A stretch of 64,000 bases of DNA, taken from assembly GCF_048403405.1 (NCBI RefSeq), contig NZ_CP183129.1; one strand, 5' to 3'. The position numbers and the translations under genes were made by a program. Below the pieces are notes generated by a model. That model was not told the DNA's origin. It ran no database searches and saw only the letters and a program-made list of their open reading frames with translations. Shown here one piece after another: positions 59,509 through 62,892 of this stretch. How positions within the stretch are numbered: position 1 is the first letter of the stretch; each line of letters begins with the position of its first letter. The stretch is from Escherichia coli. Its GTDB lineage: Bacteria; Pseudomonadota; Gammaproteobacteria; Enterobacterales; Enterobacteriaceae.

Positions 59509-60318
59509 ATGAGTAATACCGACGCTTCAGGTGAGAAGCGAATGACAGGCACCAGCGAGCGACGAGAACAGATCATTCAGCGTCTGCGACAGCAAGGGAG
59601 TGTGCAGGTTAACGATCTGTCGGCATTGTATGGCGTATCTACTGTGACGATCCGCAACGATCTGGCGTTTCTGGAAAAGCAGGGGATCGCTGTGCGTGCC
59701 TATGGCGGCGCGTTGATCTGCGATAGCACGACGCCGTCAGTCGAGCCATCAGTGGAAGATAAAAGCGCGCTGAACACCGCAATGAAACGCAGCGTTGCGA
59801 AAGCTGCCGTTGAGTTGATTCAGCCAGGTCATCGGGTAATCCTCGATTCCGGGACCACCACTTTTGAGATTGCTCGTCTGATGCGCAAGCACACTGACGT
59901 AATTGCGATGACCAACGGTATGAACGTGGCTAATGCGTTGCTGGAAGCGGAAGGCGTTGAGCTGCTGATGACCGGCGGGCATTTGCGCCGTCAGTCGCAA
60001 TCTTTTTACGGCGATCAGGCTGAGCAATCGCTGCAAAATTACCACTTCGATATGCTGTTTCTTGGTGTAGATGCGATCGATCTGGAGCGCGGCGTCAGCA
60101 CACATAATGAAGATGAAGCTCGTTTAAACCGCCGGATGTGCGAAGTTGCGGAACGGATCATCGTGGTCACCGATTCCAGTAAGTTCAATCGTTCCAGTTT
60201 ACATAAGATCATTGATACTCAACGTATCGACATGATCATTGTTGATGAAGGCATTCCTGCGGATAGTCTGGAAGGGCTGCGAAAGGCTGGGGTTGAAGTG
60301 ATTCTGGTCGGGGAGTGA
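59509..60318 (+). CDS. agaR: DeoR-family transcriptional repressor AgaR
   Basis: 269-aa ORF with N-terminal HTH ([42 protein letters not shown]) and DeoR C-terminal sugar-phosphate sensor domain. Confidence 0.95.
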
Positions 60319-60372: not shown

Positions 60373-60837
60373 TCAATGGGTTTCTTCTGTCTCTCGGGTG
60401 AGGGTTTCCCAGTCGGCAGGAGGATGTCCTCTTTTTAACATTTTGCTGAATACGGTATAGGCATCTGTTTTTTTACCGTAGGTGCGCAGAGTGTTTTCAT
60501 CGTTCATCCATCCCAGAATGATGACTTTCTCTTTTTCACTATAACGAAAGAAGAGACGATAACGACCAGCACCAAATTTTACCCGTGACCAGTCTTTATT
60601 TTTCCCAGAGCCTAACGACTTGCCATGACGGAATGCCGGTGATGATGGATTGACCGTGATATGCTCCTCAATCACTTTATGGACTACCGCCAATAACTTT
60701 GTGGCGGCTTTTCTCTGATAATTTTCAGGATCTTTTCCCTTTAATGTCTCGACTTCGGCAACTAAAGCGTCGTAGGTTTCCTGAAAACAGGGATGAGCAT
60801 ATAGCGCCCAACCATTAACCCTTTGTGGAAAATCCAT
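60373..60837 (-). CDS. yhaV: Type II toxin YhaV (ribosome-dependent mRNA interferase)
   Basis: 154-aa ORF MDFPQRVNGWALYAHPCFQETYDALVAEVETLKGKDPENYQRKAATKLL...; ATG overlaps the prlF stop (TAATG). Confidence 0.93.
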   Translation of the reverse strand: MDFPQRVNGWALYAHPCFQETYDALVAEVETLKGKDPENYQRKAATKLLAVVHKVIEEHITVNPSSPAFRHGKSLGSGKNKDWSRVKFGAGRYRLFFRYSEKEKVIILGWMNDENTLRTYGKKTDAYTVFSKMLKRGHPPADWETLTRETEETH

Positions 60838-61172
60838 TATTCGTCGTCGCCAATCTCATCATCAATGTTGACGTCCATGCCAGCGACAAGTTTCTTTCCT
60901 TGTTGAATGTTGAATGGACGAGTTTTTTGCGGGGTGTTCTGGATATCTGCATCCAGAAAACGCAAAAATGCATTCATAGTATGATCCTCCTGTTCATCTC
61001 CCAGTCGGCACATAAATACTTGCCCACCAGGCAGAATTTCGTAATGAATGCTGTCCTGGCCTGGCTTCAGTTTTAAGGCCTCACGCACTGGCGCGGGGAT
61101 AGTTGTTTGTCCGCGTATCGTGACCTTTGATTCAGTGGTCAGTACAGCGTGAGAGCGAGCATTAGCGGGCAT
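60837..61172 (-). CDS. prlF: Antitoxin PrlF (SohA), AbrB/SpoVT-fold
   Basis: 111-aa ORF MPANARSHAVLTTESKVTIRGQTTIPAPVREALKLKPGQDSIHYEILPGGQVFMCRL... with acidic C-terminal tail. Confidence 0.93.
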   Translation of the reverse strand: MPANARSHAVLTTESKVTIRGQTTIPAPVREALKLKPGQDSIHYEILPGGQVFMCRLGDEQEDHTMNAFLRFLDADIQNTPQKTRPFNIQQGKKLVAGMDVNIDDEIGDDE

Positions 61173-61228
61173 GATTCACTGTCCTTTTACAGCCTGTTTT
61201 CTGCTCAAATTATAAGCTTGAACTAAGG

Positions 61229-61244
61229 TAATGCAAATGCATTA
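61229..61244. promoter_or_regulatory. Perfect 7-2-7 inverted repeat TAATGCA-AA-TGCATTA upstream of prlF (candidate PrlF-YhaV autoregulatory operator)
   Basis: Palindrome 57-72 bp upstream of the prlF start codon, in the position expected for a TA autorepression site. Confidence 0.4.
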
Positions 61245-61267
61245 TTAATGTACGTGGGGGCTTTAAA

Positions 61268-61300
61268 CAATAAAAACATGGCACTAAGGCCATGTTTTGC
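61268..61300 (-). terminator. Intrinsic terminator after garD
   Basis: 10-bp stem AAAACATGGC / GCCATGTTTT with 6-nt loop; on the minus strand the hairpin is followed by TTTTTATTGTTT. Confidence 0.7.
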
Positions 61301-61320: not shown

Positions 61321-62892
61321 TCAGGTCACCGGTGCCGGGTTAAACACCGCCAGCTGGTTATGCAGTCCCCATTGATCTGAGAAGGTTTTCTTCTTCCCGC
61401 TGGCGACGTCGAGAATAAAGTGGAACAACTTCCAGCCCACCTCTTCAATAGTTTCTTCGCCGGTAGCGATGGTGCCCGCATTAATATCCATTAAATCAAA
61501 CCAGCGGTTCGCCAGCTCGGTGCGGGTCGCCATTTTAATGACGGGTACCGCCATCAGGCCGTACGGCGTACCGCGACCGGTCGTAAACACTTGCACGGTA
61601 ATCCCTGAAGCCACCTGTTGTGTGCCACAGACAAAATCACTGGCTGGCGTCGCGGCGTAAATTAATCCGCGTTTAGTCGGGCGTTGACCGGGCGACAGCA
61701 CTTCAACAATTGCACTTTTACCCGATTTAGCAATGGAGCCGAGCGCTTTCTCCACCACGTTTGCCAGACCGCCTTTCTTGTTGCCCGGCGAAGGGTTGGC
61801 GCTGCGGTCGGTTTTTCCCATATTGAGATAGTTATCGTACCACTCCATCTCCTCCAGCAGCCGTTTGCCGACCTCTTCGTTCACTGCGCGTGGTGTCAGC
61901 AGATGGATCGCGTCACGCACTTCCGTGACTTCTGAAAACATCACCGTTGCGCCGCAGCGCACCAGTAGATCAGACGCATACCCAACCGCCGGGTTTGCCG
62001 TTACGCCAGAAAACGCATCGCTACCGCCGCACTGCATGCCGACAACCAGTTCTGAAGCCGGACAGGTTTCTCGCTGCCGTTGATTCAGTTTGTGCAAATG
62101 GCGTTCGGCGACCTGCAAAATATCCTCGACCATGGACTGAAAACCGACATGCTTTTCATCCTGCAAACTGACAATGCTGGCGCTTTCTACTGGAATAGCT
62201 TGCACATCATCCGTTCCAGTCAGCAGGCGTTCAGGCTGCAACTTTTCACAACCCAGACCAATCACCATTACTTCGCCGCCAAAGTTAGGGTTCAGCGAAA
62301 TATTGTGAATGGTACGAATAGGCACAACTGCCGCCGGTGCGTTAATCGCCACGCCACAACCGTACAAATGATTCAGCCCCACCACGCCATCGACGTTCGG
62401 GTATTTCGGTAGCAGATCGCGTTCAATGATTTTTACTACATAGTCCACCACGCCTGCCACACAGTGGACGCTGGTGGTGATGCCGAGCAGGTTTTTAGTG
62501 CCCACGCTGCCATCGGCATTGCGATAGCCCTCAAAGGTGTATCCTTCCAGTGGCGGTAAGGGTGCCGGGACTTTGGTTGCCAGTGGCAGCGTGTGTAACG
62601 GTGGCGCTTCCGGTAGCACAACCATTGATTCGTCGATCCAGCTTCCGCGTGGGATTGCGCGCACGGCGTAACCAATCACTTCGCCATAACGAATAATTTC
62701 ACCATTAGCCGGAATGTCCAGCAATGCGACTTTATGCCCCTGGGGAATATGTTCAATTAATTCCAGCCCATCCGGAAAACGCGTTCCTGCTTTCAGGCCA
62801 TTATCATTAACAATAATTGCCACATTATCTGTGTCGTGAACTTTTATATAAAACGCAGTTGGCGTTTCTTGTCTGATTTCGATGTTGGCCAT
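61321..62892 (-). CDS. garD: Galactarate dehydratase (L-threo-3-deoxy-hexulosarate-forming)
   Basis: 523-aa [60 protein letters not shown]... Confidence 0.95.

Follow-up and report, generated by a model that had tools for sequence, protein, structure and literature searches.

In the E. coli module mazEF, the AbrB-fold antitoxin MazE binds its own promoter at a palindromic operator, and the toxin enhances this binding. A second toxin-antitoxin module, relBE, is an antitoxin-first, bicistronic operon with autorepression, as is prlF-yhaV, but its antitoxin RelB is a ribbon-helix-helix protein and is not AbrB-like. The closest described system is prlF(sohA)-yhaV of E. coli K-12 (Schmidt et al. 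2007, J Mol Biol 372:894). As cited in reviews, Schmidt et al. (2007) reported that YhaV is toxic, arresting growth, and is neutralized by the direct binding of PrlF. In a 2020 review citing the same work, a PrlF2-YhaV4 heterohexamer is described as binding cooperatively to a palindromic sequence of the prlF promoter (PMC7781912), and another review lists prlF-yhaV among the modules whose toxin may be a co-repressor (PMC8138530).

The locus considered here lies within the window, by which we mean the whole 64,000-nucleotide stretch of DNA that was analysed. Its genes are arranged as follows.

59509..60318, plus strand: agaR, which converges on yhaV and is followed by kbaZ-agaVWE
60373..60837, minus strand: yhaV, the 154-aa ribonuclease toxin, probably of the RelE/ParE superfamily (ORF listing, PF11663, AlphaFold2 model)
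60835..60839, minus strand: the TAATG junction of prlF and yhaV
60837..61172, minus strand: prlF (sohA), the 111-aa antitoxin and autorepressor (ORF listing, PF15937, PGAP annotation)
61321..62892, minus strand: garD, upstream of prlF

In Pfam, PrlF matched PF15937 (PrlF_antitoxin) at 2.4e-41 and 140.3 bits, with a curated cut-off of 32, and YhaV matched PF11663 (Toxin_YhaV) at 7.8e-54 and 181.9 bits, with a curated cut-off of 35. A 1.1-kb stretch was 100% identical at the DNA level to many E. coli chromosomes, on which PGAP labels garD, prlF, yhaV and agaR, and of 5426 complete E. coli genomes, 5359 contain this stretch. The original prediction had named the two genes and placed the module beside garD and the aga operon; the Pfam matches and the identity to PGAP-annotated genes bear out the names, and the neighbours are indeed garD upstream and agaR, then kbaZ-agaVWE, downstream. 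Locus, proteins, garD/agaR neighbours and promoter palindrome are the same as those of the K-12 system, from which nothing substantive differs. In the window, TTCAACA is present in two copies, as in the wild type, and the 111-aa PrlF is intact. The antitoxin-first bicistronic layout with overlapping genes that marks the PrlF-YhaV family was found here as well. With high confidence, we identify the region as the prlF-yhaV operon of the E. coli chromosome, a type II toxin-antitoxin module that carries a promoter and an operator of its own. Both the system and its binding to the promoter palindrome are already known, having been published in 2007, and the original prediction is correct but ordinary.

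The AlphaFold2 model of YhaV, made with a 13-sequence homologue alignment, had a pLDDT of 80.4, and its best matches in the PDB were PfiT, E. coli RelE, M. tuberculosis RelE and HigB (E 3e-4 to 1e-2, probability ~1.0). These matches support the placement of YhaV in the RelE/ParE superfamily. Judged from the model, which matches RelE (4fxh/4fxe) as well as the Mycobacterium tuberculosis RelE, the toxin of relBE would belong to the same structural superfamily; YhaV, at 154 aa, is larger than RelE and appears to carry extra N-terminal helices. For the antitoxin any likeness would be to mazEF, in that the N-terminal DNA-binding motifs may be related: PrlF matched PF04014 (MazE_antitoxin) weakly, at an E of 9.5e-4 and under the gathering score, and a PDB profile search with PrlF gave only three AbrB-family regulators, which were weak matches (E ~0.5) over residues 15-39. 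However, mazEF differs in its toxin, which is MazF/CcdB-like where YhaV appears RelE/ParE-like, and in its operator sequence, which is unrelated. The stoichiometry is also different, MazF2-MazE2-MazF2 compared to the PrlF2-YhaV4 given in the 2020 review (PMC7781912). The AlphaFold2 model of the PrlF monomer had a pLDDT of 44 and was unusable; an intertwined, obligate PrlF dimer would explain this low value. When the PDB was searched by sequence with PrlF and YhaV, no real relatives were found, nor any solved structure of either protein, of their complex or of PrlF on DNA.

As had been claimed, the genes overlap by 1 nt at TAATG: on the minus strand, the prlF stop codon TAA (60839..60837) and the yhaV start codon ATG (60837..60835) have one A in common, in the context GAA-TAATG-GAT. 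Among the homologues, the junction was TAATG or TGATG, an ATGA overlap, or a gap of up to 24 nt. Previous work using RNA-seq and ribosome profiling has shown that prlF and yhaV share one transcript, that their antitoxin/toxin mRNA ratio is 1.11, and that the antitoxin is translated more than the toxin (PMC5535158). These observations are consistent with coupling through the overlap, short of proving it. With both genes on one mRNA, ribosomes ending prlF would reinitiate on yhaV via TAATG, and toxin synthesis would be tied to, and kept below, antitoxin synthesis. We infer the translational coupling of prlF and yhaV from the overlap.

Upstream of prlF, 148 nt of intergenic DNA separate the gene from the end of garD and contain these features.

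61182..61186, minus strand: putative Shine-Dalgarno-like AAGGA, 9 nt before the prlF ATG (read from the sequence)
61209..61237, minus strand: predicted sigma-70 promoter of prlF-yhaV (promoter scan, 10/12 matches)
61229..61244, no strand assigned: perfect 7-2-7 palindrome, TAATGCA-WW-TGCATTA, with arms invariant across genera; the putative PrlF-YhaV operator
61273..61298, minus strand: intrinsic terminator hairpin of garD, AAAACATGGC-CTTAGT-GCCATGTTTT, a 10-bp stem followed by a T run (terminator scan and inverted-repeat listing)

The garD terminator is kept in the Escherichia and Pseudocitrobacter loci and splits prlF transcription from garD. The position of this strong terminator, directly after garD, shows that prlF is transcribed from a promoter of its own. 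The best sigma-70-like site has a -35 TTTGCA at 61237..61232, a 17-nt spacer and a -10 TATAAT at 61214..61209, with TTGCAT at 61236..61231 as an alternative -35; the -35 falls inside the right arm of the palindrome, and transcription would start near 61202. On the plus strand, positions 61229..61244 read TAATGCAAATGCATTA, 57-72 nt upstream of the prlF ATG (at 61172), and the perfect TAATGCA-AA-TGCATTA described in the original prediction can be read there directly. The 16-bp putative operator is TAATGCATTTGCATTA. When up to two mismatches were allowed, the exact motif TAATGCANNTGCATTA occurred only once in the whole window. A full-text literature search for the palindrome sequence gave unrelated matches only.

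When one genome per species was scanned with a PrlF alignment, 19 loci were found; four look-ups with divergent PrlF proteins gave six further loci, and tblastn of plasmids gave 304 records with PrlF relatives, of which nine were inspected. The sequences found upstream of the prlF homologues were as follows.

Escherichia spp., including one locus with a different upstream context (L003): TAATGCA-TT-TGCATTA, the same as in the window
Pseudocitrobacter: TAATGCA-TT-TGCATTA, the same as in the window
Enterobacter sp.: TGATGCA-AT-TGCATTA, one mismatch
Cedecea davisae: ATGGTAATGCAATTGCATTACCAT, in which the palindrome is extended to a perfect 24 bp
Photorhabdus, eleven loci with 42-47% protein identity: CAATGCA-TT-TGCATTA or CAATGTA-TT-TGCATTA, in which the outermost base differs
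Salmonella prophage-like locus beside an antirepressor gene: TAATGCA-NN-TGCATTA
Three metagenomic loci: TAATGCA-NN-TGCATTA, with two copies 22 bp apart on one contig

Eleven representative loci, whose flanking genes are unrelated, were aligned on the motif for footprinting. The arms carried 1.88 bits per position compared to 0.45 for the flanks (14 nt on the upstream side and 46 nt on the downstream side alike), and the central dinucleotide varied among TT, AT, AA and AC. Even where protein identity falls to ~34%, the arms AATGCA/TGCATT in front of prlF homologues stay essentially invariant, and the flanks are scrambled. Plasmid homologues with the motif were 34-44% identical in protein overall. 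They include a Pantoea agglomerans plasmid with two tandem copies of the core motif upstream of its prlF homologue, and Phaeobacter and Bradyrhizobium plasmids with single copies, whose PrlF is 34-42% identical to E. coli PrlF. Within Escherichia, the palindrome and the -10 are invariant, and nearly all polymorphisms of the garD-prlF region fall in the ~14 nt directly 5' of the palindrome (window 61245..61262). Tandem AATGCA-NN-TGCATT pairs, 18-22 bp apart, were seen at L023:1125-1162 on the metagenomic contig and at L030:400-432 on the Pantoea agglomerans plasmid.

We considered whether the palindrome could be kept for reasons other than binding PrlF-YhaV. That it serves purely as core promoter, as a -35 hexamer with adjacent AT-rich DNA and no repressor involved, is very unlikely. 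At all of the enterobacterial homologues, TTGCAT in the right arm is indeed followed after 16-17 nt by a strong -10 (TATAAT, TATACT or TATATT), a layout seen in Pseudocitrobacter, Enterobacter, Cedecea and the Salmonella-context and metagenomic loci among others, and part of the conservation of the right arm could reflect this -35 role. However, the left arm is equally invariant, which a -35 role does not explain. Moreover, in Photorhabdus, Phaeobacter and Bradyrhizobium, a separate -35 (TTGCCA or TTGACA) is found just upstream, and the palindrome occupies the spacer right up to the -10; that the register of the palindrome relative to the promoter shifts as its sequence stays constant argues against a motif kept merely as a -35 element. 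The two tandem copies at L023 and L030, and the binding reported in the 2020 review (PMC7781912), also speak against a core-promoter role alone.

It is more improbable still that the palindrome is the site of an unrelated host regulator, such as CpxR or another global factor, with PrlF-YhaV binding elsewhere. CpxR-dependent repression of prlF has been reported in a published screen (PMC9600279), but CpxR-like GTAAA/GTGAA repeats are located elsewhere, at 61175..61190. In the 148-bp intergenic region, the garD terminator is the only additional inverted repeat whose arms are perfect over 6 bp or more, and the motif travels with prlF into unrelated contexts, onto plasmids and into different bacterial classes, as fits a site of the module's own protein. 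A functionless, AT-rich inverted repeat arising by chance is the least credible explanation. By frequency alone, the palindrome is within chance at the scale of the window, where six perfect 7-2-7 inverted repeats were observed compared to 4.6 +/- 2.1 expected from first-order Markov simulations, and 41 inverted repeats with loops of 0-6 nt compared to 31.6 +/- 6.7 simulated. Thus, the frequency in the window does not by itself exclude chance, and the palindrome is significant because it is conserved: 14 specified bases are kept in at least 10 independent lineages with diverged flanks. Compared across homologous loci, this conservation is far beyond chance, and the conservation data alone effectively refute a chance origin.

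The palindrome is, then, almost certainly the module's own, already published repressor-binding site. This reading is supported because the palindrome overlaps the predicted -35, because its arms are conserved in the phylogenetic footprint, and because binding to the palindrome of the prlF promoter is reported in the 2020 review (PMC7781912); its position is that expected for autorepression by the toxin-antitoxin complex, as had been proposed. An operator within its own promoter is a further mark of the PrlF-YhaV family and appears to be present here as the conserved palindrome over the predicted -35. In the mechanism that we propose, transcription would start at the sigma-70 promoter whose -35 TTGCAT is embedded in the right arm of TAATGCA-TT-TGCATTA. 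PrlF, with a putative DNA-binding domain of the AbrB/MazE type at its N-terminus and a tail at its C-terminus that binds the toxin, would occupy the palindrome together with YhaV as co-repressor. RNA polymerase would then be blocked, presumably by steric occlusion at the -35, and the operon would repress itself. A complex bound in either of the two promoter layouts would be expected to occlude RNA polymerase. If PrlF were lost or its C-terminus altered, for example by a 7-bp duplication at 60901..60916, repression would be relieved. The abstract of Schmidt and colleagues reportedly states that the complex binds "a conserved sequence in the promoter region". For this mechanism, the features, the families, the promoter overlap and the conservation of the arms are our own observations, and complex formation, DNA binding, toxicity and derepression are taken from the literature.

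Other PrlF homologues differed in both the protein motif and the DNA. On Novosphingobium and Acetobacter plasmids (L032, L034), the PrlF N-terminal motif is STITAKGQTTIPK (STITAKGQTT...), and the palindrome is GTAAG-N8-CTTAC, located just after a TTGACA -35. In a PrlF subfamily of Citrobacter, an E. coli plasmid and Pantoea ananatis (SRLTERSQTT...IRDALH), no obvious palindrome was found upstream of prlF. Because subfamilies with different N-terminal motifs carry another palindrome or none, the operator sequence tends to track the subfamily of the DNA-binding domain. Bradyrhizobium is an exception, in that its N-terminal motif differs and AATGCA-AA-TGCATT is retained. The half-site AATGCA/TGCATT is common to gamma- and alphaproteobacterial PrlF homologues and could permit cross-regulation between chromosomal and mobile copies. 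What is gained here is an operator defined by phylogenetic footprinting, with invariant arms and a free central dinucleotide; in enterics it covers the -35, and in the other groups the spacer/-10. Its conservation reaches to ~34% protein identity, and it changes in subfamilies with a different DNA-binding motif. This definition can be used in the annotation of PrlF-family modules and in the design of binding or structural experiments.

The prlF gene contains one further feature.

60901..60916, minus strand: 7-bp tandem repeat TTCAACA, 2.3 copies, inside prlF (Tandem Repeats Finder)

Previous work found a recurrent TTCAACA duplication in laboratory evolution exactly at this site, in mutants with increased prlF-yhaV expression and altered resistance (Maeda 2020, PMC7686311). 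A 2025 study described a compensatory 7-bp duplication at the same repeat, equating it with an earlier-reported mutation, the prlF1 allele (PMC12107188), and the 2020 review gives the prlF1 insertion as derepressing prlF (PMC7781912). Public PrlF entries of E. coli and, above all, of Shigella sonnei contain the peptide FNIQHST in 1-10 copies, from which we infer that the 7-bp unit is repeated 5-30 times and that all three reading frames are represented. These records suggest that TTCAACA is a hypermutable repeat, the number of which varies in nature and rewrites the C-terminus of PrlF. Given these 5-30 natural copies in three frames and the recurrent one-copy gain in laboratory evolution, it is conceivable, though rather unlikely, that the repeat is a contingency (phase-variable) switch, in which slippage would alter the frame or length of the PrlF C-terminus and toggle derepression together with stress and antibiotic phenotypes. 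In this reading, the C-terminus is the part of PrlF that binds the toxin and enables co-repression. A literature search found no link between the prlF 7-bp repeat and VNTR/MLVA typing schemes.

Several minor observations were made in the course of this work. In the window, CpxR-like half-sites GTAAA (61190..61186) and GTGAA (61179..61175) are separated by 6 nt and overlap the ribosome-binding site of prlF. Both prlF and yhaV are among the promoters of a 2025 Reg-Seq preprint, the main text of which gives no result for them (PMC12133099). A tblastn search of a phage genome collection found no PrlF homologues, despite the 304 plasmid records. Two homologues (L020 and L025) adjoin phage-type genes: one lies beside an ANT antirepressor, the other beside a phage lysozyme and DUF2570. 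Finally, in Enterobacter sp. BIGb0383 (L006:1833-1850), yhaV starts ATG TAA, with a stop at codon 2, and is a toxin pseudogene; prlF is intact there, and the one-mismatch operator TGATGCAATTGCATTA is retained.
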